Below are positions 11,851-48,827 of a DNA stretch of 64,000 nucleotides, piece by piece (position 1 is the stretch's first letter; each line of letters starts with the position of its first letter). The stretch is from Schmidtea polychroa (Eukaryota): contig CM097885.1 of assembly GCA_044892525.1 (NCBI GenBank), positions 162,626,001 to 162,690,000 of the forward strand, written 5' to 3'. The position numbers and the translations under genes are program-made. The notes under the pieces were generated by a model. It worked only from the letters and a program-made list of their open reading frames with translations. It made no database searches and had not been told where the DNA came from.

Positions 11851-13764
11851 CTATGTAATTTTATTTATAACAATTAAAAATTAAACGATAACGTTTTTCT
11901 TTTTCCTTTAAAACATTATAACGATTTTCTTTAAAATAAAAGTGCAGTAACCGATTTGATTTTTATGATTTTTATGATTTTTATGAATTTTATTCTTTTT
12001 ATTCTTTTTATGAATGTGACCGCATTGAACTATGTTCGTAAGGTGTTGGCACTCGTGTTGATGCTAAAGCGGATGTTTGCCAGTTCAGAGCATTGGTTGA
12101 GAAATTGAGATAAACGATAGGGTTATCTTTAGAAGTGTAGATATATTTTGACAGATTTTTGAGTGTAATGCAGTGAAACCAAGGTTGAATGGAGAGCGTT
12201 TTTGGCATTGAGGTAGAATTCAGTAGGAGATTTCTGAAATTCCACGTCAGCAATAATAGATCCAATTGTTAGTACCAATTGCATAGGTACACGATAGGAC
12301 ATAGATGTCAATGTAAATCGTATTTCAATTTCCAGCGTAGAACTGGATTTACAAGTTAGTTAGCGAGGACGTTAAATCATATAACTCGGAAAGAGAATTG
12401 TCGTCATTCTGGAAGAATGACCAGTAGAAAGTTAAATCGTAGACTACAGCATATTCTAGGTAGACACAGTCACAAATCCACTCCCACCGTTAGCATTAAA
12501 TCCAAACATTAGATATATACGGTCAGTAGAGCCGAGAACCTGCAACATTCGAAACCGTGAAGATTATATAGTCGTCATGATAACTTCCACCGTAAAACAT
12601 ACTGCTCAATAAGCAAATCTTTGAGAGAGAGATGATAACGATAGTAGATCACCACCAACCTAGGCATGTACCGCAGTAGTATTCAGTAATGAAGTTAATA
12701 AAACTAAAACATCGGCAAGATTTGTTAACATGATATTTATTTCTAATGACAAGCGAATGTTTTCACATATTAGACCAATCTGATAGGAAGAATAGAATCC
12801 AGAAAGTTAAAGTATAATTAAACGTAAATATTGATTCTCAATTAAGACAAATAACATGTGGACTATGAACTTCCGAGAGAAATTAGTCGAATTGAAAGAC
12901 GAGGCGAGTGAAACAAAGTCGATAAGTGATATAACGATGTCGAGCAATTATTAAAATCGGAATTGATTATTTACATTTAACTATGATTTTGTAAATTTTA
13001 TGAAATATCGTAATTGACCTAAACTTCCGTAGTTAGCTGTACTTACAAGAAGCAAACGCATAAATATCAAATCATATTTTTCATTATTAAACATAAATGT
13101 TAGGGATTGCGATACGATGAATAAGTTTACTTTAATTATAAAAAATAATGATACTTGTAATAAATTCGTTCTGAAACTCGTGGTAATCCTAGTGAGAGAA
13201 TCCACCACATCTCTTAATTTCTCTGTCGATTTTACGCGTTTATTCCTATAACATTTGCTCATAAAATTTATATTCGAGTACAAGGAGCTAATGGTAGACT
13301 GACTGACAAGCTGATAATACTGTTGGATGATGAAGGTAGGCACATCACCACATTCAATCTCAACAAGTATTATAGGACTGGGCCCAGAAAATATAGAGTC
13401 AATGTATGCGCTGAAGAGCGTAGGTAAATCAAACAGCTCAGCAGTCCAATTCCACAACAATCCAATGCCTCAAACAATAGTAACAACCAACAATTCAATT
13501 CCTCAATTAAATTCATCAAATGATAACAATAACTTTTGTGTGATGAATCGTATCAAACTTTATTAACATTGACCTAGCCATTTTTTATTTGTGTATAAAT
13601 TTTTAGTGTATTTTACTTTATTGACATTATCAACACTCTATGTGCTTTTAACCTTATTTATTTTTATTCATATTTGTATGTAAAATTTTGATTATATTTG
13701 ATTGTAAATTTTATTGCTAAACACAAAAAATAAATATGTATATAAAGGGTAATTGATATTTATA

Positions 13765-13834
<70 letters not shown>

Positions 13835-13853
13835 GTAATAATGGTAATAATAA
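13765..13853. repeat. (AAT)n microsatellite
   Basis: Direct reading. Confidence 0.95.
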
Positions 13854-14331
13854 TTTAAGAAAGTATTAATTAATTAATATAAGTGAATAAAAATATTTGA
13901 AATTTAATTAATGTTTGAAATATAAGTGAATAAAAATATTTGAAATTTAATATCAGTCTGACGAGACTGAATTAAATAACATATAAAATTTAAAATAATT
14001 AATTTATGCAAAAATAATCTACTATATAAACGACTCACAAAGTCAGTGTAGTCGCCCAAAAATTTTAGCGAAAAACTCTTATTCAAAGGTTAATCCTTAG
14101 AATAGCTCAATACCCGAATCAGAACAAAAAGATTCACATCTTGACTAAACCTACTAAGGTACAGCACGCACTACACAACATATAACAATACACATATATT
14201 TTTACAAGCATTTCAGAAGAAGAATTTGAGAAATAATTGTCAAAGCACTGCAAACGTTTATAGAATTGAAATTGCTTATATTTGGTAAATATTGATTATA
14301 ATAAATCTTTATACACATATTTGTTTTGTTT

Positions 14332-14333
<2 letters not shown>

Positions 14334-14402
<69 letters not shown>
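14334..14402. repeat. (TA)n microsatellite
   Basis: Direct reading. Confidence 0.95.
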
Positions 14403-14404
<2 letters not shown>

Positions 14405-14447
14405 AACCAGTAAGTTGAGTGTTCCCGAATATCGAGACCTCAGCATT

Positions 14448-14466
14448 TGGTGCCGCGAACCGGGAC
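14448..14466 (+). promoter_or_regulatory. Primer-binding site, probably tRNA-Phe-like
   Basis: TGGTGCCGCGAACCGGGAC lies 2 nt after the CA end. Its complement GTCCCGGTTCGCGGCACCA has a CCA tail and resembles animal tRNA-Phe 3' ends. The tRNA identity is inferred. Confidence 0.7.
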
Positions 14467-14670: not shown

Positions 14671-15845
14671 ATGAACAATAATAATAACTTTATTAAAATT
14701 TTACCAGTAGAACCATATAGAGGAGAGCCTGAAAAGTTCGACGATTTTTTCACTGAGATCGCTCAGTATGCAGAAGCTTGTGGTTGGACACCTGATGAGT
14801 TAAAAATGAGAATCCCATTATATTTAAAAGGTTATGCGTTACAGGCATATAATAATTTAGAATGTAAAGAAAATAATTTTGATCAACTCGTAAGATATCT
14901 GAGAGCAGAAATAGTAATCGATAGTGATTTACAAAAGATAAATGTTCAAAAATTTAGAAACAGATATCAAGGTACTAGAGAATCAGTTGGTGAATATGAA
15001 TATACAATTACGGAGTTAGCGAAAAAGGCATTTGGTGCAGGCGAGCACACAGCAAAATTAATTGAGGATCAGTTTTGGAATGGTATACAAAAATATTTAT
15101 ATAAAATTTAATTATGGTTGAATATGGTAATTTAAATGAATTAGTTCATAAAGCTAAGCGTATAGAAGCAATACAACGAGATAGGTTTAGTTCACATGTA
15201 GATGCAATGAAAATCCAAAAACCCATAGAGGTAAAATCTAAGTTGGGTAAGTCAGATGACAACATCCCCTGGGAGGAGATGAAGCAACTATATTTGAACT
15301 TTGTAAAATATAGACGAAGGGTAAGCCCGAGTCCGGATAGAAGTCAATCACCTGAAAACAGGAGGAGATTTGATAATGTGAGAAACAGAAATTTTGAGAG
15401 TAGAAACAATAGAAACACTTTGGATAGAGATAATCGATATGAATATAATAGAAATAATTATACGAGAGATAATCAAGTCGATTTTAGTAGAAATAATTTG
15501 AGAAATGATAAATATGATAGAAGTAATAGATATGATAACAGAGATAATACAAATGATTTGAGACGTAGACAGACAAGTCCATATAGACAGAATTCATATA
15601 GAGAAAGGCGAGGAAGCCCTTATAATAATGATGGTAGAGATAAAGTAAATTTTAATGGACAGATTAAATGTTATAATTGCCAAAAATATGGCCACTTAGC
15701 TAAAGTATGTAATAATGCGCGAAGCGAATCGCCTAATAGAGTGAGATTTAAAAATGAGCCTGAGATAAAACAGATTAATAGTGCTGAGTTGATATCAGCT
15801 AATGACGAAATAAACAGTTTGAGAGAGGAATTAAAAGAATTTTAA
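14671..15845 (+). pseudogene. Gag (capsid + CCHC nucleocapsid), one frameshift
   Basis: Gypsy capsid motifs (PYRGEPEKFDDF, W..IPLYLKGYAL, QGTRESVGEY, DQFWNGI), an R/D/N-rich linker, and zinc knuckle CYNCQKYGHLAKVC at 15669-15710. Confidence 0.92.
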
Positions 15846-15881
15846 ACTCAATATGGGAGACTTATTGAGAGAAAACTAGAA

Positions 15882-17179
15882 ATGTCATTGAATGAGTTTC
15901 AGTGTTTTACCAATGATGTAGATATAGATAATGATGAGTTTCGCGAAGCAATAGAAGCGGATGAGAAATTTCTTGCAGAAGCAAATAGATGTAAAGAATT
16001 AAAAGAGGAATTGAAAGAGATTTTAGAAAAATGGCCTTATGATGATAATGAGACATTACGTATAATAAATAGAGTTCAAGTCGAAGGAATTGACTTAGAA
16101 TATTTGAGAAATTTGATACCAATAATGGTAAAGAGACAAAATATGACTAGAGTATTTGAATTAGAAATAGAATTGAAAGAAATGATAAAATGTTATGGTG
16201 AGTTTGTGAGAAAAAATCAGAAATTACATGAATCATTGTATATAACTATTGAGGCAAAGGACCTTTTGAGAACACTTATGCGTAGTACAGGGGTACATGT
16301 GTGCACAAAAGTGAAGAAAGTGAAACAGATGGCCAGAGCTAATTGGCCCGAGAAATTGGGAGATAATGATAAAGTAAAACTGTATTTCAACGGGGTAGAA
16401 ATCATGAATAACGAATATATAATCGACTATGGGGTAAACGTTTTTGATTACAATATTATTTCTGCCGTAATAGAAAGGCAAGAAAGTAAGGAAATTGATA
16501 CACCAACTCCATCAGTGGAATTGAGTATAAACGACGAAAATGACTATGACAAATTATTTAGATTGTGGGATGCTTCTTCAGGAGGGGCAATGAAGTCACC
16601 AACAGCTAGCGATGAAATCTTTAAACTTATTGATAATAAGTGTGATAATTTACATGAGACAATAGAAAAAATTGCGAAACAAGCAAATATGCAGGATGCA
16701 GAGACGATGAGATGAGGTAGAGGAAGGCCTCGAAAATCTGAAATAGCCGAAAGTCAGATGACAGAAAGGCAGCAGAGCGTTTAAGAGATATTGCAAATAA
16801 TATGAGACAAGAAGTTCCAAAAAATCAGGATAATGACAAAGATATAAATATGATAACGGAGTTAGTTAAAGCAATGAATATGAGACGATTCCCAGAAGCA
16901 AAACCATCAGCGTTAATAGAAAATATAGTTAAAAAGATTAAATTAATGGAAAAAGAGATTAGAGAATTGAGTGCAGAGGAAGCGAATGAAGAGACAGTGT
17001 TAAAGATATTATTTACAACCGGAGTCAATCGGGATAAAGTGATTACGGCGATGGCATATTTAATAGCAAGATACAAAAAACTTTTGCGAATGAATCCAAA
17101 GAATCAAATAGAAAATATTGCTAAAATGATATATAATAAACTAAAGATAAATGCTATGCCATGGATAAGGAAAGCGTAG
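15882..17179 (+). pseudogene. Uncharacterised Gag-env spacer region with ubiquitin-like domain and AT-hook
   Basis: In frame with Gag after a single TAA. TKVKKVK..KVKLYFNGVEIMNNEYIIDYGVN resembles a Ubl fold. MR*GRGRPRK (~16707-16738) is an AT-hook with TGA in place of CGA. Confidence 0.55.
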
Positions 17180-17280
17180 GAGACAATATTAATGTAGAAA
17201 TAGATGATAACGAGGAGACGGTAAAAAATCTAGTAAATAAAACAACCATGAGACCAAGTCAAAAAGAAAGAAAGTCGACA

Positions 17281-19150
17281 ATGTCAATAGTAATTATAGT
17301 AATAACATTATTGTTAGATCTGATAAAAGGAAATAATGCGATCATAGCGTATGACTGTCAGAACCCCAAGTGGGGACAGAAATATTCATTATTAGATGTA
17401 GAAAATTGCCCAGAGGCTAATCCAACAAAAATAATTGTGGGAGATCCAATGATTTTTCACATATATCAAGTCTGACTTCATTCACACTGAAGCAGGAGAA
17501 TGTATCGTTAAATATTCAGAGGAAAGTTTTGTGTGTAATAAAATAGCAAGAACAATATTAACTCCAACATGGGCACCAGAAGCGATAATAATAGCACCAA
17601 TCGAATGTGAAAATGCATTTAAAACAAAAAAGATAAAAACGCCGGATGGATTTGAGTTAAATGCTCAGGTAGGAGCACGAGTAAGGCAATTAGTAAATGT
17701 CGTGGGATGGTCATCAACAGGAGGATATTGTGAAGGAGGAACGTATAAAATATGGGGGCATGTGGCAGACAATATTGTAGTGAGACGACAATATTATATT
17801 GAATTAAGGAAATTCAAGGCGTCATTTGATAGTTCATCAAAGAAAATGATGACACATAAGTTCTTTACATTAGATGAGACAAGCTGTGATACAGGCGAGT
17901 CAATGATCATATACAAAGTAAAAAATACGAATGCCATTTAACTAAACTAAAGACATTGAAATTCAGAACAATACGAGGTAAACAGTTCACGGATGTAGAA
18001 TCCAAGAACATTAAAGACCAAAAACGACGAGCAACGATAATTCAAGAGAGAGATACACCAACGATATACATGTCAGATTCTGAAACCGAAGCGATGAGAT
18101 TTGTGGGAAAAGGTGAAAGTATCAAATGAGGAAAAGCAGTTATACAAACAAATTATGAAGGAATTTATATCAGCGGAAGTGAAATTAAAGAGGCAAAATC
18201 GAAAATAGATAAATTCGACGTTAAGCTAGCGTCATATTTTAATAATAAAATTGACTATTTTTATCATCATCACTTAGTACAATTGGACAAAGTATACCAA
18301 GCAACTATTGCAAACGATTGTAAACTTAATAGAGAAATATTAAGAACAAAGATGGCGGTTGCAGTCACAAACCCAGATTTAATGGCACAAATTTTATTTG
18401 CAGAGAAAGGGACATTTGCAAGAGTTGCCGGTGAAGTGATACAAACATTTCAGTGTAAACCGGTTAGCGTATCGTTAGCAACGAATAATAAGTGCACAAA
18501 CGAATTACCAGTAGTATATAAAGGGGAAACTGTGTATCTCCAACCAATAACAAGGATATTAACAGATAAAGACTATGTTCCGAGAAAAATTGATAAATAT
18601 ACAAATCTACTAGATCCGTTATACAAAATAAATGATGATATGTGGATTACAATGTCAGATAGAAAGGAAGCGACTAAACCACAAAAACTAGAATTAACTG
18701 AACTTGAGAAAAAGTTAGAATTTCAGGAAGTCAACGAAATGGATAACAATGGAATGTATACGAGAGAGGCGATAGAGAGCGCTAGAAAACATATGCTATT
18801 TCCTCATGAAAAAGAAAAAGTTCTTTCAATTATGGTAAACAAAATCATCGAGAATAGTTATGGAGGGAATTACAACTTTGATGTATTATTATCAAAAGAG
18901 CACTTCAAGAAAGTTGTATATAGAGTATTATACAGCATATGGGGACATTTTGCGATTCTCAGAAATACGTTTTCCACTATATTGGGTATATATTATACAC
19001 TAGCACTACTGAAAATGATTTGTTCATCATTAGTTTCGTTAAGACAACTGAGACAAGTTTTTGGTAATTCATATAAAATGATGGCATGTTTATGTCCATT
19101 CATAGCGAAATATTTGATCACTGCGAAGCACGACAAAGAAATCAAACGGA
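17281..19150 (+). pseudogene. Chuvirus-like envelope glycoprotein (env)
   Basis: Signal-like MSIVIIVITLLLDLIKGNNA, then IIAYDC..YSLLDVENC, GYCEGGTY, C-x-LNREIL..NPD..GTFARVAGEVIQTFQCKPV..CTNELPV..YLQPITRIL, and C-terminal hydrophobic W-x-x-F..ILGIYYTLALLK. This Cys/motif series matches chuvirus-type glycoproteins captured by invertebrate retroelements. Two frameshifts and one TGA. Confidence 0.82.
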
Positions 19151-19399
19151 TGAAAAGTCGAAGGGAAGAGGGTGAAATAATGATCACCAATGAGAAAGAT
19201 GACGAGGCAAACAAATCAGAAAATATTGAGCATCCACATATTGGGTTATATGATAATCAAAGTGAACAATTGACAGAATTGAGAAATAATATTGAAATTA
19301 GAATCCCAGGTGAAAATGGTAATTGTCATTGTGTTCCAAGGAAAACTTATGGATGTTACGGGTTAGAACTTGACGATATATTAGAAGGGTTAAATGAAG

Positions 19400-21295
19400 C
19401 AAGGTCTAAATTACAAATAGTGATAAATAATACGATAATAAAGGCATTATGTGACACAGTAGCAGCAGCTTCTATGATTCGTGAAGATCAGTTAACCGAA
19501 AATCAAAAGAAAAATATCGTGAGCACAAGAGATAGAGTAATTTCATTATCACCACATTACATACCATTAAAAGGCGATATCGAATTAACAGTCCACTTTT
19601 CAGATCAAGTGGTTGAACATGTTTTCAAGGTAGTAGCAGAATGTAAATGCGTGTGTGTCCTTGGGATGGACATACTCAAATAGTTAAAAAAACTGTGTAA
19701 TTGATTTAACGGATAGTACAGTCAAACGGAAAGCAATATATCAAGACGCAAGATTTACTGAGGTAATTGCATTAGAAGCATTCAAACTAGAATATCAAAG
19801 TGATCATATAATTCCAGTGAAGGTTAATGTTAAAAGTGAGGACACTTTCATTTTCGAGCCTGAAACGGCAATATCACGAAATCATAATGTAATGTTAACA
19901 GACGAGTGTGTAGTTCCAAATAATGGGATAATTCCAATAAGAATCGCGAATTACGAAAGGAATAAAGTAAAAATTCATAAAGGTACAAAATTGAGAAAGT
20001 TGTTCAAAGGTGAATTAGAGCAAACATTTGAAGTATGTGAGATGTCGATGACGAGTGATGTCAGTGAAGGAATGGTCGAACAGAGTAGAGCGAATAATAT
20101 TAAATTTTATGATAAAATTAAAATAAATAATAATTATCTAAACGAAACACAACAACTACAACTACAAATATTACTTGACGAATATAGTGATGTTTTTGCA
20201 AAACACGAATTTGATTTAGGAGATACTGATATTATCAAACATGTAATCGATACGGGGAATGCTAGACCAATAAAACAGAGACCCTATAGTGTACAATATA
20301 AATTGAGGGAGGAAATAAAACGACAAATTAAATAATTAAAGGAGGCAGGCGTAATAAAACAAAGTTTTTCACAATGGGCATCACCTATTGTACCAGTTAG
20401 AAAGAAAGACTATCGTAAAGACTTATCGTAAATTAAATGATGTAACAGTAAAAGATTCTTACCCATTCCCGAGAGCACAAGAACAATATGATAAACTTAG
20501 GGATACTAAGTATTTCACAGTAATAGACGCAAATAAAGGCTACATGCAAATTCAAATGGAAGATGGGGATGCGGAAAAAACTGCTTTTGTGATTGAGGAC
20601 GGTTTATATGAATATACAAGATTACCTTTTGGGTTAACCAATGCGCCAGCAACATTTCAACGTTTAATGAATACAGTACTAGTAGATGTACAACATTGCA
20701 CAGTATATATGGATGACATATTAATATCGTCAAAAACATTTGAGGAACACTTAAAAGACATAGCAAATGTATTACAGAGATTGAGAAAAGCGAGAATTAA
20801 AATAAAACCCACTAAATGTAAATGGGCAGAACCTTCAGGATTATTCTTAGGACATATAGTCACAGTAGATGGTATAATACCTAATCCCGATAAAATTGAA
20901 GTAGTTAAAAAATTTCCAGTTCCAAAAACATTACAACAAGTACAGGGATTTTTAGGTCTCACAGGATATTATCGTAAGTTCATACAAGATTATGCAAAAA
21001 TAGCAGCACCACTAATTGAATTAACAAAAGGAGTTAACGATAAAATTAACAAGCCACAAAAGAAATGGAAAGATGAACATCAAAAAGCTTTTGATCAACT
21101 AAAAGAAAAATTAATAACAGCACCGATACCCAGACTTTAAAAAACAGTTTATTGTCATGACAGACGCCAGCGGGAAGGCCGTAGGGGCAGTCTTAGGACA
21201 AGAAGAGGAAAAGGGTAAAGATTATGTAATAGCTTATGCAAGCAAAACATTAAAAGGAGCACAGATTAGGTACTTAACAATTGAAAAAGAATGTT
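19400..21295 (+). pseudogene. Pol: aspartic protease, RT, N-terminal RNase H (truncated)
   Basis: ALCDTVAA (DTGA with G>V) and VLGMDIL; FAKHEFDLG; WASPIVPV; FGLTNAPATFQR; YMDD at 20706-20717; FLGLTGYYRKFI; MTDASGKAVGAVL. Breaks off after TIEKEC. Confidence 0.95.
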
Positions 21296-21671
21296 GAACA
21301 ACCAGAAAAACAACTACTGTAGGTTCAATATCCACACATCCTATATTACAAACAATAACGAATATATATATAGGAAAACGACATTTAAAGCGGTTAGACA
21401 AATATATAAAAAATTGATAATGAAAAATCCAAGACAGTCTGATAGGAAACTGATAAAATTACCTACAGGAAAACCGATAGTTATAAATAACTGGAATGAA
21501 TTACAAGTCTTTCAAAAGAAAGCAAGTAAACCACAATGGACTTTTTATGTAATAGCTACAAGTGTATTGTCATTCGCGATTTTAGCAATTATCACTAGTG
21601 TACAAGTTTATAAAAAGTACAAGTGGAAAAGGCAGCGGTATCGGCACCGACTGGTCAAAGAAGCACCATGA
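21291..21671 (+). CDS. C-terminal remnant of a type-I membrane protein downstream of pol
   Basis: Hydrophobic WTFYVIATSVLSFAILAIITSVQVY followed by basic tail KKYKWKRQRYRHR. Joined to the truncated RNase H, apparently by an internal deletion. Confidence 0.55.
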   Translation: MLNNQKNNYCRFNIHTSYITNNNEYIYRKTTFKAVRQIYKKLIMKNPRQSDRKLIKLPTGKPIVINNWNELQVFQKKASKPQWTFYVIATSVLSFAILAIITSVQVYKKYKWKRQRYRHRLVKEAP

Positions 21672-22102
21672 CATTTTCACTTGGACAAATATATCCCTGG
21701 ACAATATACTCTGTCCACACTTGTGGATCGAAAGATTTTATGTGTTTATAATGTGTTGTGTGTGCGGTATTTAATTTTTCTACCACTTTAGATTTCTATA
21801 GTGTAAGATGTATCTCATTGCACTATAAATGAGAAAATCAGCGTGAAATCAAATTAAGTATGTATGTTTCTATAATATAAGATTACTGATTTTTGTCTTA
21901 TATTATAGGAACGTATCTCTGTTGTGTTTGATTTAACTTTAGAAACACATGCTACAGTCTCCGAGTTTACAAGGCACACAAAAACGATAGACACGTATAC
22001 AAAAAATAAAGAATGAATGCCATACAAACTCATTCTCTTGTGCACAACAAAGACGAAGCTCAATACAAACGCACACTAACACCAACTGAATCAATAATTG
22101 TA

Positions 22103-28915: not shown

Positions 28916-29701
28916 TGTTGGGTTTTTAATGTAAGTCGGTATCACGGTCTGACTCCTTTGTGTTCTTTATCAAAATCAAGATAACCCAACACAATAATTT
29001 TATTCAAGACTAATACAAGTACACTTGTTGATTACACTCTTTATTGAACAATTTCAATCTTTAATAACTCTGATCTGCACTTTTCAATGATACAATAAAT
29101 CTCAAATTATCACAACTGCTAAATCCTTTTACTCACTCGTTTAATCCTACTAACTTTTCTTCGACCAACTGGCATTTTGTTTTCTTGCCAGTTGCTTTTA
29201 TACTCACTTGGTAATTGACTTTTTTTTTGCCAATTATTTTTGGTCTTATTTCCCCCGGGCTTCCTCTTGGAGGTCTAATTCAATTGAAGGGAATTTGCTC
29301 ATTTTCTTTGACGGCGCTTATTACTTTTTATCCGGCTAAATTAATTGCCTTCCCAAAATTGGATTTCTCAATTCGCTCGGGTTTTCCATTGTATCGGGTT
29401 TCCCATTAGCTCGGGTTCTCCATTAGCTCGGGTTTCCCATTAGCTCGGGTTTTCCATTAGTTAATTAATTTTTGTTTTTTGTAATTTATTCCTTTTAGGG
29501 ACCCCCCATTGATTTTATTTTATTATAGCTGAACTCGTCTCATTATTTAGCATCCGCCCATACCAGTTTCCCCCAGAAAATATTCATTTTTTAAAATTTT
29601 TGATTTTTAATTAATATTTTGTACTTTAAATTTTGATTTTGAATTTGGTGTTTTTGTCAATTTTCACCTCATTTTGTGCCTCTCTTTGTTGAACCCCAAC
29701 A
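28916..29701 (-). repeat. 3' LTR of element 2 (786 bp)
   Basis: Near-identical to 40513-41189 apart from indels; preceded on the minus strand by the PPT. Confidence 0.95.
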
Positions 29702-29717
29702 TATCTCCCCCCTTTAA
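29702..29717 (-). promoter_or_regulatory. Polypurine tract
   Basis: Minus strand TTAAAGGGGGGAGATA immediately before the 3' LTR TG. Confidence 0.9.
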
Positions 29718-30238
29718 TTTAGATTCGACCTCGAATCTGCATGTATATAATAAGTCTAATTTACCATACAATAATAACAATAATAATAATAATCATAATA
29801 ATAATAATAATAAGAATGGATTGCTATCTACCTATTTTAGCTATTGCCTTTGCCAATGATTCTAAATCTGAGATATTTTATTTTGAAATTTCCTTATTCG
29901 ACTCCCCCCATCATCCTCACACTACTTAATATAAATAATAATGTTAATACTAATAACAATAATAATGACGATAACAAGACTACCGATAATAATAACAATA
30001 ATTCCTACCGATNNNNNNNNNNNNNNNNNNNNNNNNNNNNNNNNNNNNNNNNNNNNNNNNNNNNNNNNNNNNNNNNNNNNNNNNNNNNNNNNNNNNNNNN
30101 NNNNNNNNNNNNNNNNNNNNNNNNNNNNNNNNNNNNNNNNNNNNNNNNNNNNNNNNTGATTTTTTTTTGTTTTGAATAATAATGATAATAATAATACTGA
30201 TAATAATTCCTAATGATCACAATAATAAGGATAATAAC

Positions 30239-30312
<74 letters not shown>

Positions 30313-30345
30313 TAATTCACTTATTCAATTTTTTTTAATTAGAGA

Positions 30346-30538
30346 AATTTCAATAATTGAATTGACATAATTGAATTTTGTTTAGAAGGAATTCTCAGAA
30401 ATTCCATGAAAACGAGCGCTCAATCATATTCCAATCCACATAAATGAAGATTTTCAAAGAAATTTCAATAATTGAACTGACATAATTGAATTTTGCTTAG
30501 AAGGAATTCTCAGAAATTCCATGAAAACGAGCGCTCAG
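30346..30538. repeat. ~80-bp direct repeat, two copies, in the 3' non-coding part of element 2
   Basis: AATTTCAATAATTGAA..GAAAACGAGCGCTCA at ~30346-30422 and ~30461-30538. Confidence 0.85.
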
Positions 30539-32928
30539 CCATTCAAGTAGAACTTTCCCATTATTTTATAATTCAATATTTTCTTTTAGAACGAAAGAAA
30601 ATTGACGGCGAAACATCAGTGAGTTTCCCCAAATTGCCTCTCAGATTCTAGCCAATGCATTAAATGGCTTCTGATTGGCTGTTTTTCCTCTAATAGGTAA
30701 GAGATTTTATTATATTATTTATGTGAATATTATTAAATATTAGTCATTTTTTCGTAGAGCAGAAAAATCTAAAAATGTATGATTCTCTGTAGCTTCTTTT
30801 AATTGAACTTTGGCAATGGATATTGATTTTTCTGATATTTTCAATAATTTAGAATGTGAAATTTCCAAAATCCGGTCAATAATTTGTTACCAATTTATTT
30901 TATTATTTATTTATTCTTGCATGTAAATACTGCCATGATTGAAAGAAAAATATGCGAGTAAGCGGGGTTTCGGTTTATTAAATTAAAGGATTTATTCTGT
31001 GTACCTGGATTTGATTAGAATTTTTAAAATTTTAGAATTATTTTTAATAATTAATATTTTTGGATTTAATTCATGAACCGTGCAAAATATTTAACCTTTT
31101 CAAAACAATTTTTTTTATATGTTTAGCATACTAATAACTTTTTGGAAGAGAATTATGTGCTTTGGTTTTAAGTAATAAACGATGCCAAGATTATGCTAAT
31201 GGACCATCCTGCTAAATTTCTGGAAATTTTTTTAAAAGTTTACTATTCTGTATTCAGCAATTTTTTTGTAACTAATGCGATTTATTTGCTAGCCCAGTAC
31301 CAACAATTTATGGAGAAAAGTTTACAAGTTGTTTTAATGAATTATATACATGTTAATGATTCAGGTTTAATTGAAAGTTACTTTTATTTTTTTTTTAAAA
31401 AGTCCTTAGATTGAACATTTTAATATCCACGAGGAAAAGCAAAATTTGTCGCATTTTCAAAAATTTATTTAGAAATACTTTCGATATTTAAAGAAATTGA
31501 AAATTTATTTTAAATTAATCAAACGTTTTATTTGATTATTCAAAATTGGATCAATTAAAACAAACTCAATATTTTAGGTAGGTTTTAAAATTTATACAAT
31601 ATTTGTCCAAATTGAAATAACTTTTTATTCTTTCCAGTTTATCACAGGTCGTATTTTTATCAATTATAAATAATTATTTATCAACAATTAAATAGTATTT
31701 ATCCATACATCTTTCGCNNNNNNNNNNNNNNNNNNNNNNNNNNNNNNNNNNNNNNNNNNNNNNNNNNNNNNNNNNNNNNNNNNNNNNNNNNNNNNNNNNN
31801 NNNNNNNNNNNNNNNNNNNNNNNNNNNNNNNNNNNNNNNNNNNNNNNNNNNNNNNNNNNNNNNNNNNNNNNNNNNNNNNNNNNNNNNNNNNNNNTATATT
31901 GTTGATGTAAAAATGAAATAATTATTATTTGTCTTTTTTAATCTATTTTTTTTGCATGTTATTTTTATAATAAAATAGAAAAATTGTTAAATTATTTGCA
32001 TTCAATTTATGGTTCAAATACGATATGTAATTCCTAATATTTTGGCAGTGATATTAAATTTATAACAATGGATCGTGTGTATTTATTATTCTTTAATTAA
32101 TATTTTATATTGTCTTTTTACTACTCAATTTATATTATTAAAATTTCAATTTTAATTTTCATCATTGCTTGAAAATAAAACGGTTTGTTATTATTCGACA
32201 ACTAATATGCCGAAAAATTATGGTTACTGACATAGAGTCATTTAAAGAAATTGTTCTTATGATAAAGTATTGATGTATTTGAGTGTTCATAATATCACGA
32301 AAATATTGTTGTTTAATTTCGAATATTATTAAATAAACAATATATTAATAAAAACACATCTAAATTTGCGATTGCTGAGGGATTAAAGTGATGTACTTAT
32401 AATAAATTTTGTTAAATAAGTGATACGTGGCAAGGTTTAGTGCAAAATTTATATTATACTATATTTACTATATCTAAAAAGTAAAGGTAATGAAAAGTTG
32501 ACTGCCAATTTGTGGATGTACATTCACTGATACACCTACATGACTAATTATTAGACTGAAACCATTTTATCTATTTTATACAGCTTTTACCTGTTGTAAT
32601 TATTAATAATAAATTGTCGCAGCCCATTATGGCTATTGACAACCACACCTTTCCAATTGTTGTCCAGGGTAGCCAAACCCCGACAATTGGGAATGTGTAT
32701 GTTGTTATTTATAAATTAAAAGTTTTATTTATTATTTATACATTTTTCCCTTTAATTATTTGGGGTTTGACTGATGAGCTACCAATTAATAAATGANNNN
32801 NNNNNNNNNNNNNNNNNNNNNNNNNNNNNNNNNNNNNNNNNNNNNNNNNNNNNNNNNNNNNNNNNNNNNNNNNNNNNNNNNNNNNNNNNNNNNNNNNNNN
32901 NNNNNNNNNNNNNNNNNNNNNNNNNNNN

Positions 32929-34176
32929 CAATTGTTTGGTTCCATGCCGATACCGTATTATTGTTTCTTCCCGTTCGTAGATTACCCCATCGATGGTTAC
33001 AGTCTCCCCAACATCAATATTTGAAGTGTTTTTCCTTTTTCTCGCTTGTCGACATTCGGGCATTGGACCATACTCAAGTGTTGGGTGTATTCTTACCATC
33101 GAAACACTTATCATTACTGAAACACATTCTTGTGAAATTTCCAAAAACGATTCGGTGGCCCACTTTAATGGAATTAATGGATTTTCGGTCTCCATCTCCA
33201 CATTCTCCTCGCTTGTCAAGTCAATTTGTTCTGCTTCCATCACATCGTCAACCAGAATTTGTGCCACTTTCACTACCGTTTGTAATTTGAACCATTCTCC
33301 TTTCCTGGTTATTCCCCTGTTCTGGAGTACTGGTGCCGCTGCCAAATCACGAATGCCATATAATTGCTCAATCCATATTCCCAAATATTGCAATTCTGCA
33401 TGTAAATCATGGCCCACTAGTATCTTGCCAACTGTCAATTGTTGGATGTCTTTTGTTGCCACATATTGATCGCATTGATTCCTGCTAGCTACTTCTGTGA
33501 TTCCGTGGATCCTTGAATTAAAATGGCGAATTTTTCCCCTTGGAGTCAAGTATATATTCTTTATTATTTTTCCATAATAATTCATAATCGCAAGTGCTAG
33601 AGGGACCATTTTTCCTTGTTCAGACGTGCCATATTCTGCATCAATAAACAATATTCAGTTGCGGATTTCTTCCAAATCCATTTCCTTTCTGAGAAACGAC
33701 ATTTTCCTTTTCAACATTTCTTTCGAAATTTTCATTAACATTGGATCTTCTCTTGCACTTGGCTGCATCTACGGAACTTCGTTCGCTTCATTTTCGATTC
33801 TGATTTCCACTACCATGGTTGTTTCTTCATTCGCTGCTCGTAACATTCTCCACATGAAGTCTCTCTGCAGCTTCCACGACGTAAATTTTTTAAGTTCCCA
33901 ACACACTTTGTTGTCATTCGTCAGTACCTCAACGGTATCCTTGATCACATGTAGATGATATTCTTCTTTCCTTGACATCTCTACTTCTTCTGCTAATCGC
34001 AATTTTGACATCCTCATGATCGTAAACATTTGGATCTTCATTTTTCGGTCATCAATTCTTAAATAATTTGGGATTTGGAGATTGTCATTGATCCGGTATA
34101 CTTTTTGTCCGGCATGATTGTTCTTCATTTTGATGTAGCTGTCGTAGGTCGACCTTGCCAACTGTATTTGTTCCAT
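32929..34176 (-). pseudogene. Accessory ORF with REX4/ISG20-like DEDD 3'-5' exonuclease domain
   Basis: ORFs 33769-34176 and 32779-33651 are in the same frame, separated only by TAG and TGA. ExoI FIDAE, NYYG..YLTP..IHGI, ExoII ILVGHDLHAEL, IRD. ExoIII not visible. The 3' end runs into a gap. Confidence 0.85.
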
Positions 34177-34598
34177 TTTTTTCTACAATAGTTATATATT
34201 TAAAATTTGAAGTTAATTTAATTTTAACACTAGGATTGAGATGGGGTACCCAAAGGATACCGTCCCACCGACTAGTTATATAAATAAATAATAATAATTA
34301 CCGTTTAGTTAATTGTTGATTTTTTTTTCAAAATTAATGGAGTTTAATGGATTTAACCCTCTTTTTATACCCTTATGAAAATTCTCTTAACCCCGTTTTT
34401 CTCTCCCCCTTAACACAGCGCTAACCAATCAAATTGATTCTTTCCGTTGATATTGAAAAGTGCAGATTCACAAGTAAAATAAAATGAAATATTGATCATA
34501 TCCATAATGAAATAAAATATTAATAATATCCATAAAATATTTGTACTATATTACTACTACTACTTTATCAATTTTGCATGCAAAGTATTTATGTCTTA

Positions 34599-35798
34599 CT
34601 ACACAAATGTTTCTTCATAAACGACCCAAGGTCTCGCAATCTCGGATCGATTCGTAGAAGGTTTGGGTATTGTTCGAAATTCAATTAGCACAATGATAAT
34701 GAGAATAATGAGAGAGATTGTTATAATGAAAGTAGTTATTAATAATGTTACACACACAATTTCACTGTCAGTTTTTAATGACGATATGGTTTCGTTATTA
34801 GTCATTGACTCATTGATGCTAAAAAAATGATTACGTTGGCAGAGCTAGGGGTTCGGTTGGACTGATTTGATTTGTTTCGATTTCCATACTGCGAGTTAAT
34901 AGATGGAATTTACACAATTTTATTTTCCACTAAAGTTAATTGCCATAGATTTGAAAATAGAGAACGTCTATAGTATTTTATTTTAATGAACACAAATTTT
35001 GACGTCGATATTGGTGAACGTTGACGAAAAGTTAATATTTGAGATTTATTTTTTTCATTTAATATCGATTGAATTTTTCCATAATAATATAAAATAGCTT
35101 TTTGATTGGGCTCCGCTTGTCGGGTAACATTCACTAATTTATTGAGAATATGAAAAGTAACCCGATTTGTTTCATTAACTAATCATATCATATGTTGACT
35201 AGAGTGTATTCTGATCCATTGACTATCAATTTCAGTTCCGTTTTCGTATAAAGATTTTTCATAATAATGAATCAGAATATTATAGTTATGATGTAATTTT
35301 AAATCTGCATACTTTATAAAGGGTTTCTGCTATTCAATGTATCTATCGCATAATTTTGAAAACTGCTTTTACTTGTTGGGATTGCTGGGGTTCCCAATAT
35401 ATGTCAATTCCATTTAGCAGTGGTTCAATTGATACTCGATTATGTAATCTCTTTGTCCAGATATTAATACGTATAAGATTTTGTATTTTCGTATTATTAT
35501 TTTCTGAATTTAATTGTGTAATTAACCACGGGTATTCATAATTCATTGTTAATTGTCTAGCCACATAAATACTTTTGTTGCTGTTTAACTTTATTGGGGG
35601 TTCAAAGTAATTTATTAGATTACTTATCTCAATTTCTTCTGATCCCTCAACATAATAGACCCATACTATTTGAGTACATGTTGAGTATATATGAATTTTA
35701 TCTAGTAGGGTAACTGTATTAGTTGCATACAATGGGAATACTCTCCCAGCGTTCACTGATATTATATTGATAATCATTACTGTTGTAATTAATAAAAC
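34599..35798 (-). pseudogene. Second type-I membrane (glyco)protein fused downstream of integrase
   Basis: In frame after the GPY module: signal-like VLLITTVMIINIISVNA, a ~330-aa decayed ectodomain with several N-x-S/T sequons, TM IVCVTLLITTFIITISLIILIIIVLI (34683-34760), and a short tail. Confidence 0.6.
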
Positions 35799-35899
35799 TT
35801 TATTGATGTAACTCAATAGAGCAGGGTTTTTTGTAAACTTTTGTTTAATTACTGGGTTCCCTGCATTTTTATTTGTATTTGATCTCAATGGATAGCCTG

Positions 35900-38800
35900 A
35901 TTCATCTTCTCCTATTATCTTCTTGCATCTATTTACATGAACGATGATTGTCCCAGCCTTTTTATTGTTTTGTGGACGCAATTTTAAATTAGTCTCTGTC
36001 GTATCACACACTAGATATGGTCCTTTAAACGGTCGTTGCAATTTCGTTGACAAGCCTTTTGTTGGTTCTGGTTTGTTTATATACACGAGATCTCCAATTT
36101 TAATGTCATGCGCCCGTGCGCGTTTATCATAGCATTCTTTATACGCTTCTTGATGATGCCTTATGTTAAGTCCAGCTTGGATCCATACTGAGTGTAGTCT
36201 TTCATGCATAGCTATTTTATAATCCGACACATCCATATATTGGGAAATAGGGGACTGAAATTCCAGATCGACTGGCATATTGTTTCGTCGTAGATACATG
36301 AGAAAAGGGTGTTTCTCCAGTGCTTTCATTTACTGCATTCCGGTATGCAAATAAGCATGGTTTAATGAATAAATCCCAATCCTTTTGTTTCCTATTTACA
36401 TAGGATGATATCATATTAATTAGTGTCCCATTAAATCTTTCAACTAGACCATCTGTTTGTGGATGATATGGTGAGGTACTAAGTTTCAATATACCAAATA
36501 AATCTGTAATTGATTTAAATAATTCACTCTGAAAATTTGTTCCTTGATCTGTAAGTAATTTCTTTGGTGCTCCGTATCGAAAAATAATATTCTCCACAAA
36601 TATTTTCGCAACTGTTTCTGCTTTCTGATTTGGCATTGCATAAGCCTCTGGCCATTTAGTAAGATAATCGCAAAAAACAATAATGTATTTGTTGACATTT
36701 GTTGTTTCCGGCAATGGACCAACGATGTCCATTGCTGTCATTTCCATTGGCGCCTTTGGCACTGGCATAGGCTTAAGCGGAACATTTATTTTCCGTCCCG
36801 TATTTCGTCTTGTTAGGCATATCTCACACGTATGACACCATTGTCTGACATCTTGTTCCATCATTTTCCAATAATATTTCTTTTTCAATCTTGATAATGT
36901 TTTTCGCGCTGATAAATGCCCTCCTAATGCTCCATCGTGATACAACAACAGTAATGCTTTTCGATGTTTTGTCGGAACAATAATTAACAAATTTTCATTT
37001 TGTACACATTTTAACAAACCATCATGAATAATGTATTTATGGTTCTCTTCGGCAATATGTTTCCAGTCACTCTCCTTTTTGATTGAGACAGCATGTTGAC
37101 GTAACTGATTTAATTCCTCGTCATTTTCCTGATCATCTTGTAATTTTTCTATATTATTTGCCGTTTTAATTGCCATGAATATTGTATTTTCGCAATTTTT
37201 TTCATCTTGATCAACATTATTTTCTACGGGTATTCTCGACATAGCATCCGCATTTGCATTTGCCTTTCCTGTACGATACTTTATCTCGAAATCATATTCT
37301 TGTAACGCAATTGACCACCTAATTAATTTACTGGCCGAATCTCTATGCTTCATTAGCCATTGTAACGGATTGTGATCCGTAAAGACAACAAACTTTTTGC
37401 CTACTAGGTATTGTCGAAAAGTGGTTATCCCATATACCAATGCTAACGTTTCTTTTTCGATTGTCGAATAATTTTTTTCATGAGGTTTCAACGATCTGCT
37501 GGCATAAGCAATTACATGATCTTTTTCCCCTTCTACTTGCTGTCCAAATACCGCGGCTAATGCGAAATTACTGGCATCTGTCATTAATATAAACGGTTTT
37601 TTAAAGTTCGGACATCTTAATATCGGCTGTTTTATTAAGCTTTCTTTGAGTTTATCAAACGCTTCTTGCTGAGCTGTTGTCCATTTAAATTTTGCTTGCT
37701 TTTTCAATAACATGTTCAAAGGTTGTGCGACATGTGAGAAACTTTTAATAAACTTTCTGTAATAACTAGCTAATCCCAGAAATTGTCGAACCTGATCTAC
37801 ATCCTTGGGAATAGGATATTTCTCAATTTTCTCTACATTTTCTGGATTTGGTTGCAAACCTAGACGCGAAATGATATGACCCACATAAACGACTTCAGAT
37901 TTCCCCCATTCACATTTGGAGGGTTTTATTTTTAAGTTTGCTTCTAACAATCGCTTGAATACTGTTTCCACATCCTGCAAATGTTCCTGAAAACTATTCG
38001 AAAATATTATAATATCGTCAATATACACTAATGCATGTGGTATATCGCGCAAAACAAAATTCATACCTCTCTGAAATGTAGCAGGTGCTCCTGTTAATCC
38101 GAATGGTAACACGTTAAACTCATATAGACCCTTCCCATCTGAAAATGCAGTTTTCCTTCTATCTTCCTCTTTTACTTTAAATTGATTGTATCCTTTATTA
38201 AGATCTATTACCGTAAAATATTGCACCTCCCCCCATCTGATCGAACATTTCCTGTGGAACAGGAATAGGATATGTATCTTTTCTCGTTACTTGGTTCAAT
38301 TTTCGATAGTCGACACAAAATCTTAAATCACCGTCCTTCTTTTTAACTACTATTGATGATGAGAATGGTGAGGAACTATCTCTTATTATATTGAATTCTT
38401 TCATTGCTTTGATTTGCCGATCACTTTCTTCCTGATGTATGTATGGTATTCTATACGGCCATAATTTTATTGGGGTTTCGCTGAGTAGTGGTATTTCATG
38501 CTCAATCACCTGAGTGAGTCCCAGATCATACTCATGTTTTGCAAATCCGTCAAATCTTTGCTTGTGATCTGAGGTTCTTTATAAATTTTTATATTTCTCG
38601 GTAACTTCTGAGCTTCCTCAGATTTGATTTTTGTTAATTTTCCCAATTTGGTTTTGGGCTTTATTTCAACGGATCTTGCACTATAATTCGCTATTCTAAC
38701 TGGTACTGACTTATTTTGGACTTTCACTACTTCATCACACATAGGCACATCGTATTTTTCAACCAGCTTTTGATTTGGCTCAAATATGTACTCCTCATCT

Positions 38801-39291
38801 GAGACCCTCATAACATCTGCATAGTATATTACTTCGCTTTTTGGTGGTACTTCCAATGTTTGGTTTAGAAATACCTCTCCTACTTCAGGCACTACTTCAC
38901 CCATTTGTCCTTTTATTAGTTTTCCAGTTCTCAGATCAAGAGAAATTCCATGTAGTTGCTCCATGACATCCATGCCAATAAGACATTTTACAGGACTTTT
39001 TCTCATCACTGATACCCAATGAATTATTTCTTGATCTCCAATTATCAGTTTAACTTCTAATTTTCCAACAATATTTAGTGCATTATGTGACATTGATTTA
39101 ATAATGTGATTCGTTGGTTTTATTTTGGCTTTCTCCTGATACGTCAAGAAGCTTTCCGCTAATATAGTATGACTTGAGCCTGAGTCTAATAAAGCTTCCA
39201 CTTTTCTCTTGTTAAACTGTATGTTTATTCGAGGTTGTTTTCCTCCTACTACTGTTGTCATTAGTGCATAGCTGCATGGTAGACCAAGCAT
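35900..39291 (-). pseudogene. Pol: PR-RT-RNase H-integrase (GPY), three frameshifts
   Basis: ALLDSGSS; FGLTGAPATFQR, YIDD; TDASN, TDHNPL; HHCC (H..GGH..CHTC), MDIVGPLP, TDQGTNF, VERFNGTL; FKGPY. Confidence 0.96.
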
Positions 39292-39321
39292 ATTCTTTCT
39301 TTCAATTTCCGTACTCGTTGG

Positions 39322-39925
39322 TTATATCTTCTCTAATTCTATTGTGATATTATCGACCGATTTCATCTCTTTTAGTTTTTCACTTGGATATACTGGTGCT
39401 GTTGGTCTAAATGTCGGGGTGTACCATCTACTAAGAGTATCAATCCCGCTTAATTTTGGCATTGGTTCAAGCAAGAACCTGGACTCTGGCTCTACTTTAC
39501 TCTTTATTACACTTTTTCGAAAGCATTTATGCTCCGATTCCCCGTTGTTGTTATCATCATTATGATCGTCGTTTTTATCTTCCGACTGACACGTAGATTC
39601 TTCACTTTTCCGGCCATTTCTTAATTGTGCCCTTACTCTTGCCATTTCTTTAAATTGATGATCTGTAATAAAGAATCTAGCCAACAATGGAATACAACCA
39701 ATAATTAATTTCCATGACCATCCCGATATTGCATATATTCGATGTACTGACAACATTTGCGACACTACCACCTTTGCCGTTATTACAATCACGTAAATTC
39801 CAATTAAACCTGCACATGCTTGTCCCAAAAACATGAACTTGCCCCAAATCTTTTCCATCGTTTTATACGTAGCTCGTTTGAAATGATCAGGTGTTAGCAA
39901 ATTTTCGTAATTTACTGTTCCTTCT
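39322..39925 (-). pseudogene. C-terminal (TM + tail) remnant of the chuvirus-like env
   Basis: YENLLTPDHFKRATYKTMEKIWGKFMFLGQACAGLIGIYVIVITAK aligns with NFDVLLSKEHFKKVVYRVLYSIWGHFAIL..ILGIYYTLALLK of element 1. In frame with PR across one TAA. Confidence 0.8.
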
Positions 39926-40490
39926 TACGACTCTGATTTCGACTGTGTGCTTTTTAAATTTAGCTCAATTTTCATTGCCTTTTTAATCTCCACCGTACTG
40001 ATCTACAGGTAGTTTTTGACAACTCGCATAATCATTGCCTTCCTTGCCGTTGGCCACCGTGGACACAGGTGTTTCGTCATTGTTATTTGTATTATTGGTT
40101 AGTCTTTGGGTACTCATTAAATTCTCTATTAGTGTTTGGCTTCTCAATTTATAAAATGATCGGGTCAACACAGGCTTTACTCGTCTAAAATTCAAAGTGT
40201 TACAATTACAAAATTTACCTTTCGTTTTAATTTTGACTTTTCAACAATCAATCGTTACAAATTTTCCCACTTTGCTTCAATAATAAATTCACCACTTTAA
40301 TAATTCTCGAATAATGTTCACCACTTTCAAATAAACGTTTCACTTCAATATTTGTTTATTTAATTATTATTATCTTTTTCCAATTTTTTTTTTGATACTT
40401 TACCAATCTCAACAAATTTTCACCGATCTTTTCATTCTTCGGTATCACTCAAATATTATCACAATTTCAACAAATCTTCACCGACTTTTG

Positions 40491-40508
40491 ATCACGTCGG
40501 GCTCACCA
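40491..40508 (-). promoter_or_regulatory. Primer-binding site, tRNA-Trp-like
   Basis: TGGTGAGCCCGACGTGAT lies 4 nt after the 5' LTR. It differs by one base from the classic tRNA-Trp PBS TGGTGACCCCGACGTGAT. Confidence 0.88.
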
Positions 40509-40512
40509 AATA

Positions 40513-41189: not shown

Positions 41190-41353
41190 ATTTTGATAGA
41201 TGTTTTAAATATTTTCTTATTATTAATTTGAAGTTCATTCGGTTCAAGTAATTCTAGCTGATATCATAAATATATAAATTTAAGAATTTCAACTGAATTT
41301 TGATATATTTGAATAAAAAAAAACTAGTTTCGTTAGGATTTACCTGCCCTACG

Positions 41354-48663: not shown

Positions 48664-48827
48664 ATATGGTACTTAAGGTTAAATGCGTGTTTTGTTGATT
48701 TTTTAGTATTATTGTTATTATTATCGTTTTTACATAAAAATTAAAACTTTACTAACGTCATTAATCCAACTTTTTTGTCCGTTTCATTTTGAATTTTGTG
48801 TTTCACTTTAAATTTGAAGAAGAAAAA

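Follow-up and report, generated by a model that had tools for sequence, protein, structure and literature searches.

The question raised by this locus, which lies in a 64,000-nucleotide stretch of the Schmidtea polychroa genome (the window), is whether an envelope glycoprotein placed between gag and pol and fused in frame to the protease is a genuine feature of a retroelement lineage. The open frame at 18283-19683 (467 codons) holds no stop but its terminal one, as the preliminary description stated, and really begins at 18130, giving 517 aa. Residues 3-369 of this frame match PF24664 (Monjiviricetes_fusion, E 6.5e-68), and residues 423-517 weakly match aspartic proteases (E 0.03-0.09, below the cut-off); in the window copy the active-site motif of the protease has degenerated, whereas an unbroken copy gives an RVP match at E 1.5e-6. 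Two upstream pieces, 17140-17472 and 17453-17938, match PF24664 too (E 2e-4 and 3e-6), and farther upstream lie a weak retrotrans_gag match and a zf-CCHC match. That the upstream pieces are parted by single stops or 1-nt shifts largely held, except at a junction near 17168, where about 54 nt are missing. The position of Env between gag and pol, in frame with the protease, was borne out by both the window frame and the genomic copies.

The copy in the window belongs to a young Ty3/gypsy family; it has decayed and suffered an internal deletion, and its features lie on the forward strand. A degraded, microsatellite-interrupted 5' LTR remnant (13317..14445) was placed by blastn against the LTR of a genomic copy, with identities of 79% (13317-13432), 72% (14003-14344) and 98% (14393-14445), and is followed just past the LTR end by a putative primer-binding site (PBS) that starts with TGG (14448..14465); the motif also lies 3' of the 5' LTR in all five copies with the LTR end placed. 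Gag (14671..15845, by Pfam) comprises a capsid-like region, an R/N/D-rich spacer and one CCHC knuckle, and has a single frameshift near 15105 (Retrotrans_gag E 0.009, below the cut-off; zf-CCHC E 1.7e-4). The Burro-type linker (15846..17280) was recognized by sub-cut-off Pfam matches and by an order as in Burro: a SUMO-like part (about 16353-16439; Rad60-SLD E 0.024, below the Pfam cut-off), an RGRPR motif found by regular expression (about 16715-16735), which we take to be AT-hook-like, and a Bcl-2-like part (about 16919-17173; Bcl-2 E 1.7e-4, below the Pfam cut-off).

Env is preceded by an internal signal-peptide-like segment (17281..17340; Kyte-Doolittle 1.96 over 19 aa), which relatives carry at the same place. 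Its ectodomain (17341..18978), assigned to the Monjiviricetes/gB-type class III fusion family by PF24664 and BDV_G (E 3e-4), has lost its open frame to two frameshifts, near 17460 and near 17920, and to a stop at 18127. The Env transmembrane (TM) segment (18979..19035; Kyte-Doolittle 1.79, relatives 2.0-3.0) leads through a predicted cytosolic tail and spacer in frame with both neighbours (19036..19395) to the protease (PR; 19396..19683), which is truncated by a stop. The PR-RT spacer, RT and the N-terminal part of RNase H (RH) follow with several breaks (19688..21294; RVT_1 E 2e-32, RT_RNaseH E 2e-17); the spacer sits at the position of a dUTPase-like domain in Burro. About 1.9 kb, comprising the RH C-terminus, integrase (IN) and more, is deleted at 21295/21297, past which the end of the polyprotein (21297..21721) is 95% identical to the ORF1 end of a genomic copy and comprises part of a post-integrase membrane protein: its stalk, its tail and, between them, the second TM at about 21546-21602. 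The match stops at 21721, and the window copy is without ORF2 or 3' LTR. The post-integrase protein was invisible to the preliminary description because it is mostly deleted from this copy.

An Env-PR query against the genome gave at least 83 scored places (of 2,819 candidates), all 83 matching at 93-100% and covering at least 473 of the 517 residues; 66 are stop-free within the match, and 11 sit in stop-free frames of more than 3,000 aa. Six copies were fetched from the 13 rows with frames of that length, and in all six Gag, Env and Pol form one ORF of about 3,030 aa (3,029-3,034), as had been surmised. ORF1 encodes, in order, Gag, SUMO-like, AT-hook-like and Bcl-2-like parts, signal 1, gB-type Env, TM1, PR, RT, RH and IN and, past IN, signal 2, an FN3-like ectodomain, a stalk, TM2 and a tail (in an unbroken copy, PF24664 E 1.9e-87; Bcl-2 E 6e-6, below the cut-off; Rad60-SLD E 0.026). 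The full element measures 13.4-13.6 kb, with a separate ORF2 of about 700 aa and LTRs of 1.07-1.14 kb (TG...CA); all five non-tandem copies have a PBS, a purine-rich tract, a 4-bp target-site duplication (TSD) and LTR pairs 97.9-100% identical. A fusion peculiar to a rearranged or misassembled copy, which the heavily broken and deleted state of the window copy might suggest, can practically be dismissed, being refuted by a junction common to all 83 places, the intact copies, two other families, public relatives and members of the RT clade, and by a contig of another run (X1) that gaplessly spans the Env TM and spacer and ends just before PR. A programmed frameshift between gag and env was also rejected, since the shifts are absent from all six unbroken copies.

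The element belongs to Ty3/gypsy (Metaviridae) by its pol order, LTRs, PBS, polypurine tract and TSD, in agreement with the lineage first proposed. Pol of an unbroken copy has the Pfam order PR-RT-RH-IN, with a gypsy-type RT, an H2C2/rve integrase and a GPY/F-SH3 end bearing the GPY motif, and among solved structures its RT-RH is closest to Ty3 RT (E 3e-80, versus 5e-42 for caulimovirus-type and 6e-30 for foamy). A BEL/Pao element with a chuvirus glycoprotein (Anakin type) was rejected on the lack of any Pao-specific Pfam family among the matches and on the location of env upstream of PR. ORF2 appears RNase T-like (Atlas 0.91; Pfam RNase_T E 0.018 in a sister family), although in the window-copy family the first of its acidic motifs seems to have degenerated.

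Env is under strong purifying selection, as measured by a pN/pS of 0.03-0.04 in all five copy pairs, which is not above Gag or RT. The TM1-PR spacer gives 0.12-0.35 in the four of five pairs with synonymous changes, and the post-integrase membrane protein, at 0.35-0.51, evolves much faster than Env. The profile check that had been suggested for the glycoprotein identified it as chuvirus/gB-type, a PF24664 member, and 12 of its cysteines are invariant among six relatives at about 40% identity; when the PDB was searched by sequence with the Env profile, no class III fusogen was retrieved.

The design extends beyond this family. A second element in the window (28916..41193, reverse strand) is a sister-family copy of the same design with both LTRs, which has lost about 4.2 kb of gag-env; what is left runs from the Env tail through PR-RT-RH-IN to the post-integrase membrane protein, and an exonuclease-like ORF2 is also present. 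Two further families in the genome share the design, with Env 40% identical, and Env is joined to PR in all seven public matches. A quick IQ-TREE analysis of RT-RH used 65 of 70 rows, leaving out five for insufficient length, and recovered a 20-member clade with an SH-aLRT of 99; Env precedes PR in one protein in 16 members, and the other four are Pol-side ORFs. The ankyrin-bearing relatives P0015-P0017 fall inside this clade, and P0015 has a ubiquitin match (E 4e-5). Family D is an RT-less derivative that keeps Env, PR and the post-integrase membrane protein. The best family match of Env is to a Monjiviricetes fusion protein, as would be expected had it been captured recently from a chuvirus-like RNA virus by the window-copy family alone; however, Env is 35-42% identical across the RT clade where RTs are 47-57% identical, its position is constant, and PMC13524379 favours an ancient association, all of which makes a recent capture very improbable.

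Past integrase, ORF1 goes on to encode another signal-like segment, which is followed by an FN3-like ectodomain, and it ends with a TM and a short tail. A signal-like segment and C-terminal TM after IN are found in 19 of the 20 members of the RT clade, and a class I PDZ-binding C-terminus in 12 of the 20, versus 2 of 50 other polyproteins. A profile of nine post-integrase ectodomains, six of them selected for an FN3-like motif, matched 40 PDB chains, presumably all FN3-bearing, with Tie2 (E 3e-6) and neogenin (E 3e-4) the best. Pfam fn3 matched one of the nine members (E 0.014, below the cut-off), and PDB searches with profiles built from three sequences did not retrieve any FN3. AlphaFold models of two ectodomains were poor (pLDDT 35 and 47); Foldseek with these returned nothing at E 0.001 or better, and fibronectin repeats on top for the sister-family model (E 0.003) and VIA-align scores of Z 5-6 to FN3 and other beta-sandwiches are, given low-confidence models, leads only. 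The window family's module showed no significant similarity to those of the sister families in profile-profile comparison. None of 2,543 candidates from a word search with the sister-family alignment matched, and a search of 1.84 billion representatives with the module gave two matches, both cadherin-like and in the TM region only. The FN3 assignment is accordingly made with moderate confidence. Searches of article text found no description of a second glycoprotein, of FN3 or of a PDZ motif for such elements. The module is apparently unannotated, though Repbase, GyDB or the figures of both key papers may already show it.

Kyte-Doolittle analysis, the sole basis of the proposed topology, places four hydrophobic segments in ORF1, at aa 884, 1453, 2752 and 2970, a pattern compatible with the processing first suggested, by signal peptidase and the element's own protease. 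The polyprotein would be threaded four times through the ER membrane, with Gag and the enzymes cytosolic and Env and the second ectodomain luminal. Signal peptidase would free both ectodomain N-termini and leave the two signal sequences as C-terminal membrane anchors on the Gag-linker and on Pol, the former acting as a tail anchor for the Bcl-2-like domain; Gag and Pol would therefore gather on the membrane of the glycoproteins. The protease would then free the mature proteins, enveloped particles would bud, and Env-driven fusion would carry them into other cells, the second glycoprotein most likely aiding attachment or sorting the particle to cell contacts via its PDZ-binding tail. Processing, particles and infectivity are what we infer from this layout. 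An extra hydrophobic patch about 33 aa past TM1 scores 2.1-2.3 in seven of the 20 clade members and 1.5 in the window-copy family; as the sole extra pass, this patch would put PR in the lumen, so the topology requires an odd number of crossings by the Env anchor. A single ORF implies Gag:Env:Pol at 1:1:1, an unfavourable ratio for building a capsid, and nothing that would regulate it was seen. No recorded RNA run was listed as containing the element; contigs of uncertain kind from four runs had no usable splice joint, which counts neither for nor against. Taken whole, from copy identity and polyprotein layout to topology, processing and particles, the family is probably a recently active, compact, Burro-like Ty3/gypsy errantivirus of which the window holds a decayed copy.

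The same polyprotein could instead serve intracellular replication, Env and the second membrane protein being anchors for assembly or local cell-cell fusion and no infectious particles being released. The 1:1:1 stoichiometry and membrane tethering suit assembly on ER membranes, and PMC13524379 calls the entry mechanism of gB-type elements unknown. An anchor alone, however, needs no conservation of the whole ectodomain, and the low pN/pS of Env and its invariant cysteines at such divergence therefore disfavour a mere anchor role, leaving this explanation unlikely.

An alternative with a little less than an even chance is that the post-integrase protein is a host-modulating accessory, such as a receptor decoy, superinfection block or junction remodeller, comparable to the Bcl-2-like and ubiquitin-like domains and with no part in entry. 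It evolves much faster than Env, phmmer at E 0.01 matches the window family's ectodomain to none of the 18 others, and an FN3-TM-PDZ layout is that of host receptors and adhesion proteins. Nevertheless, 19 of 20 clade members keep the protein in frame, where env usually lies, and it is retained in RT-less family D alongside Env and PR and would be produced one-to-one with Env. It is a candidate partner for the fusogen. We tentatively raise the possibility that the clade is a two-glycoprotein, retrovirus-like lineage, in which a four-pass polyprotein would carry a class III fusogen and also, joined to the end of integrase, an FN3-type protein captured for attachment or adhesion, with a conserved PDZ-binding tail directing budding or transfer to junctions and a partner role like that of gD/gH/gL for herpesvirus gB.

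The window-copy family is a compact example of the Burro design, young and present in many copies, with evidence of selection on its Env. Its post-integrase protein bears on a question raised by PMC13524379, namely how gB-type retroelements might achieve cell entry when they lack the partner glycoproteins on which herpesviruses depend. Should this protein act in entry or in targeting to junctions, flatworm-type elements would have a two-glycoprotein, polyprotein-processing strategy, of which literature searches found no report among LTR elements, and in a regeneration model such elements could pass between stem cells and tissues.

The suggestion that the gene order might be new fails. In-frame env between gag and pol is reported for planarian Burro elements in the text of PMC6431247, and PMC13524379 catalogues GAG-ENV-POL errantiviruses in Platyhelminthes, Nematoda and Bryozoa, six of them from S. 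mediterranea, so that the arrangement was in substance already catalogued; the order itself is published for planarian elements. The main text of PMC13524379 does not contain 'polyprotein', 'fibronectin', 'exonuclease', 'fused' or 'in-frame'. By env placement and a predicted gB/chuvirus-type ectodomain between a signal-like segment and a TM, the window-copy family falls among the GAG-ENV-POL HSV/gB-type errantiviruses. It shares this order and Env type with Platyhelminthes_Rhabditophora_Smed_errantivirus_3 (Chary & Hayashi 2026, PMC13524379), which shares just 31-38% identity with the remaining five Smed elements. Over the 246 aa of Env published there, the two differ at about 43 positions, none a cysteine (about 82% identity, by eye), and the cysteines agree with the C1a type of Smed_errantivirus_3. 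That element is listed with three copies and no LTR or PBS call, whereas at least 83 places and clear LTRs were found here. Compared over this Env stretch alone, the window-copy family may represent either a separate subfamily or the equivalent of that element in a related host. The non-canonical nematode ERVs (Sacco et al. 2022, doi 10.1099/jgv.0.001739) are described in PMC13524379 as metaviruses with Env before pol.

Burro/GYPSM1, giant gypsy-like elements (Grohme 2018 and Jurka 2007, as cited in PMC6431247), encode one polyprotein with Gag, SUMO-like, BCL2-like, mononegavirus-like env and PR-RT-RH-IN (Arkhipova & Yushenova 2019, PMC6431247), and the window-copy family too has a single polyprotein with env in frame between the BCL2-like domain (E 6e-6, below the cut-off) and PR, with a putative SUMO-like part (Rad60-SLD at no better than E 0.026) upstream. 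According to the same text, Burro is more than twice as large (>30 kb versus 13.5 kb; 4,873 versus 3,030 aa), has 2-3 CCHC knuckles rather than one, and bears MATH, BIR and ankyrin domains, for which the window-copy family has no Pfam matches; because of its 13.4-13.6 kb, its 3,029-3,034 aa and the lack of these domains, the family is Burro-like and not Burro. The text of PMC6431247, Fig. 2A aside, does not mention a post-integrase membrane protein. The rotifer LTR elements Vesta and Juno (Rodriguez et al. 2017, PMC5408684) also have an additional ORF at the 3' end that belongs to the DEDD superfamily of exonucleases; theirs is DEDDy/RNase D-like and replaces env, whereas ORF2 here looks RNase T-like and comes on top of env.

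The window copy, a decayed Ty3/gypsy element, had been described as running without a stop from a glycoprotein through a transmembrane (TM) segment into a protease, and this holds: the frame at 18283-19683 is open for 467 codons, and its true stop-free start lies at 18130. A profile check of the glycoprotein places the Env of the 18130-19683 frame in the Monjiviricetes-type fusion glycoprotein family (Pfam PF24664, E 6.5e-68), and it is followed in the same frame by a hydrophobic segment, a spacer of ~120 aa and an aspartic protease. Upstream fragments encode the N-terminal part of the PF24664 glycoprotein, a CCHC knuckle, a Gag capsid-like region, and Bcl-2-like and SUMO-like stretches that both fall below cut-off; RT and then part of RNase H lie downstream of the protease. 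The upstream Gag and Env pieces are present and split by frameshifts and stops as the preliminary description had it, but not by 1-nt shifts and single stops only, given a 54-nt gap near 17168. The window copy is a dead element: its reading frame is broken by several frameshifts and stops, its integrase is hit by a 1.9-kb deletion, its protease site is degenerate, its 5' LTR is ruined and it is without a 3' LTR. The window also holds DNA transposon remnants at 1729-3024, 22469-22897, 58697-59125 and 61115-62680 (weak matches to DUF4371, DDE_1, a Spin-doc zinc finger and a hAT dimerisation domain), the last containing a 380-nt direct duplication, and another repeat in two diverged copies (73-88%) ~37 kb apart, at ~9000-11900 and 46200-48700.

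In the genome assembly searched (G000), the Env-protease frame was matched at 93-100% by all 83 scored places (2,819 candidates); 66 of these are free of internal stops, and 11 fall within stop-free frames of >3,000 aa. Six places were fetched from 13 rows with frames >3,000 aa, a sample thus selected for intactness, and each carries Gag-Env-Pol as one ORF of 3,029-3,034 aa, counted from the first Met, as the preliminary description had anticipated for intact copies. Programmed frameshifts between gag and env are therefore rejected, and those of the window copy are decay. The five non-tandem copies are 13.4-13.6 kb long, with a PBS, 4-bp target duplications and LTRs of 1.07-1.14 kb that are 97.9-100% alike and have TG...CA ends; a tandem pair with a shared LTR lies at G000:C2:60015000-60034000. 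The Pfam order in one intact copy is zf-CCHC, SUMO-like (E 0.026), Bcl-2 (6e-6), PF24664 (2e-87), RVP, RVT_1, RNase H, H2C2, rve and SH3, and the RT is Ty3-like. Between copies, pN/pS is 0.03-0.04 for Env in all five pairs, 0.02-0.13 for RT-RH, and 0.04-0.07 for Gag in four pairs, with 0.46 in one nearly identical pair. The single-ORF Gag-Env-Pol structure is real and well supported. In copies c6 and c4 (L016, L010), env pS is 0.126 versus <=0.015 in gag, linker and pol, a mosaic divergence which suggests that subfamilies have exchanged env by recombination.

Two further G000 families, one of them that of element 2 in the window, share the single-ORF design, with Env ~40% identical. Element 2 occupies 28916-41193 on the minus strand. 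Its family is very abundant, all 150 scored places (2,024 candidates) matching at 95-100%, and both fetched copies (among L031-L034) have a single 3,396-aa ORF that encodes four CCHC knuckles; their LTRs are 99.7-99.8% alike, and their PBS differs from that of the family under study. A second reading frame, ORF2 (L017 33-2189), is DEDD/RNase T-like (Atlas 0.91), with an RNase T-type Pfam match at E 0.018 in the sister family, whose ORF2 lies at window 32779-34182 (minus strand) in element 2; its first acidic motif appears intact in the element 2 family and degenerate in the family under study. Family D (L025/L026, one copy seen) is apparently a non-autonomous derivative that lacks RT, RH and IN and retains gag pieces, Bcl-2-like, Env, a degenerate protease, ORF2 and the membrane protein that elsewhere follows integrase.

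Public relatives were drawn from protein searches with 67 and 7 matches, and in an RT-RH tree made by a quick search from 65 of 70 rows (the other 5 being too short; SH-aLRT support only) the three families from G000 form a clade with 17 public proteins (support 99). In NCBI one member, P0026, is recorded as a hypothetical protein from a Flavobacteriaceae MAG; it is probably animal DNA that was binned in a metagenome. In the family under study the ORF runs ~290 aa beyond the integrase SH3 domain. This stretch comprises a signal-like segment (aa 2752), an ectodomain of 200 aa that carries five N-glycosylation sequons, a TM (aa 2970) and a tail of 41 aa. Such a signal-ectodomain-TM module follows integrase in 19 of the 20 clade members, P0006 being without it, and evolves faster than the rest of the polyprotein (pN/pS 0.35-0.51). 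In 12 of the 20 the C-terminus is [ST]-x-[VIL], a class I PDZ-binding motif, which the other eight lack; among 50 other polyproteins taken from the same search, 2 end this way (Fisher's p 8e-7, inflated by relatedness; rate inside tails 0.04). PPxY, a late-domain-like motif, occurs in 3 of 19 tails (family A, P0024, P0025). Many relatives have two or three aspartic-protease-like domains (P0001, P0006, P0012-P0014, P0016-P0018, P0020, P0023, P0025), in some placed after integrase immediately before the second signal peptide, as if every membrane module came with its own protease.

The post-integrase ectodomains are very diverse. A nine-row profile, six of whose stretches were picked for an FN3-like motif, matched 40 PDB chains, best Tie2 (E 3e-6) and neogenin (E 3e-4), both FN3 proteins, and the named Atlas neighbours, a lead only, are FN3-TM proteins (0.85-0.88), whereas Pfam fn3 falls below cut-off on these ectodomains and predicted folds are poor. 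The ectodomain is therefore likely, though not proven, to be FN3-like. A role in attachment or junction targeting and one as a host-modulating accessory are about equally open for this second protein; that one polyprotein yields both a class III fusogen and an FN3-type attachment or adhesion protein is a tentative reading, somewhat on the doubtful side.

In the most likely model, whose topology is based on hydropathy only, four hydrophobic segments would pass the chain back and forth across the ER membrane, with Gag-linker, PR-RT-RH-IN and the final tail cytosolic and Env and the second ectodomain lumenal; this requires that a further hydrophobic patch, 33 aa past the Env TM (TM1), does not by itself add one more pass. 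Signal peptidase would release both ectodomains, leaving signal sequences as anchors on Gag-linker and Pol, much as flavivirus capsid precursors are membrane-anchored by a signal sequence. Capsid, enzymes and glycoproteins would thereby gather on one membrane, where the protease could dimerise and free the mature proteins, and the retained signal sequence may serve the Bcl-2-like domain as a tail anchor, which is typical of the Bcl-2 family. The 1:1:1 ratio of products needs some correction, such as the selective degradation that occurs in the single-ORF element Tf1.

No description of the post-integrase module was found in the literature searched, which did not extend to Repbase, GyDB, Grohme 2018, Sacco 2022 or figures, and it is this membrane protein, FN3-like and PDZ-tailed, that deserves follow-up. 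The gene order, thought undescribed in the preliminary description, and the in-frame fusion have been in print since 2019: PMC6431247 presents planarian Burro as one polyprotein (Gag, SUMO-like, BCL2-like, env, PR-RT-RH-IN), with an env resembling mononegavirus fusion proteins, and terms it the first instance of an env lying in frame between gag and pol. PMC13524379, following Sacco 2022 on this order, reports GAG-ENV-POL gB-type errantiviruses from nematodes, bryozoans and flatworms, and its catalogue of flatworm elements has nine entries, six of them from S. mediterranea. Additional DEDD ORFs have been described in rotifer LTR elements (PMC5408684). BURRO1 RNA rises in differentiated tissues on SMEDWI-2 loss according to PMC8532177, which is no evidence for the family under study. 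Because the ectodomain of Smed_errantivirus_3, as given in PMC13524379, differs from that of the family under study at ~43 residues out of 246, as counted by eye, the host is probably a dugesiid planarian, and the element is, judged from sequence, a relative of an already catalogued errantivirus, compact and Burro-like. It lacks the size and the extra domains of Burro, so it is no Burro element, though it works like one.
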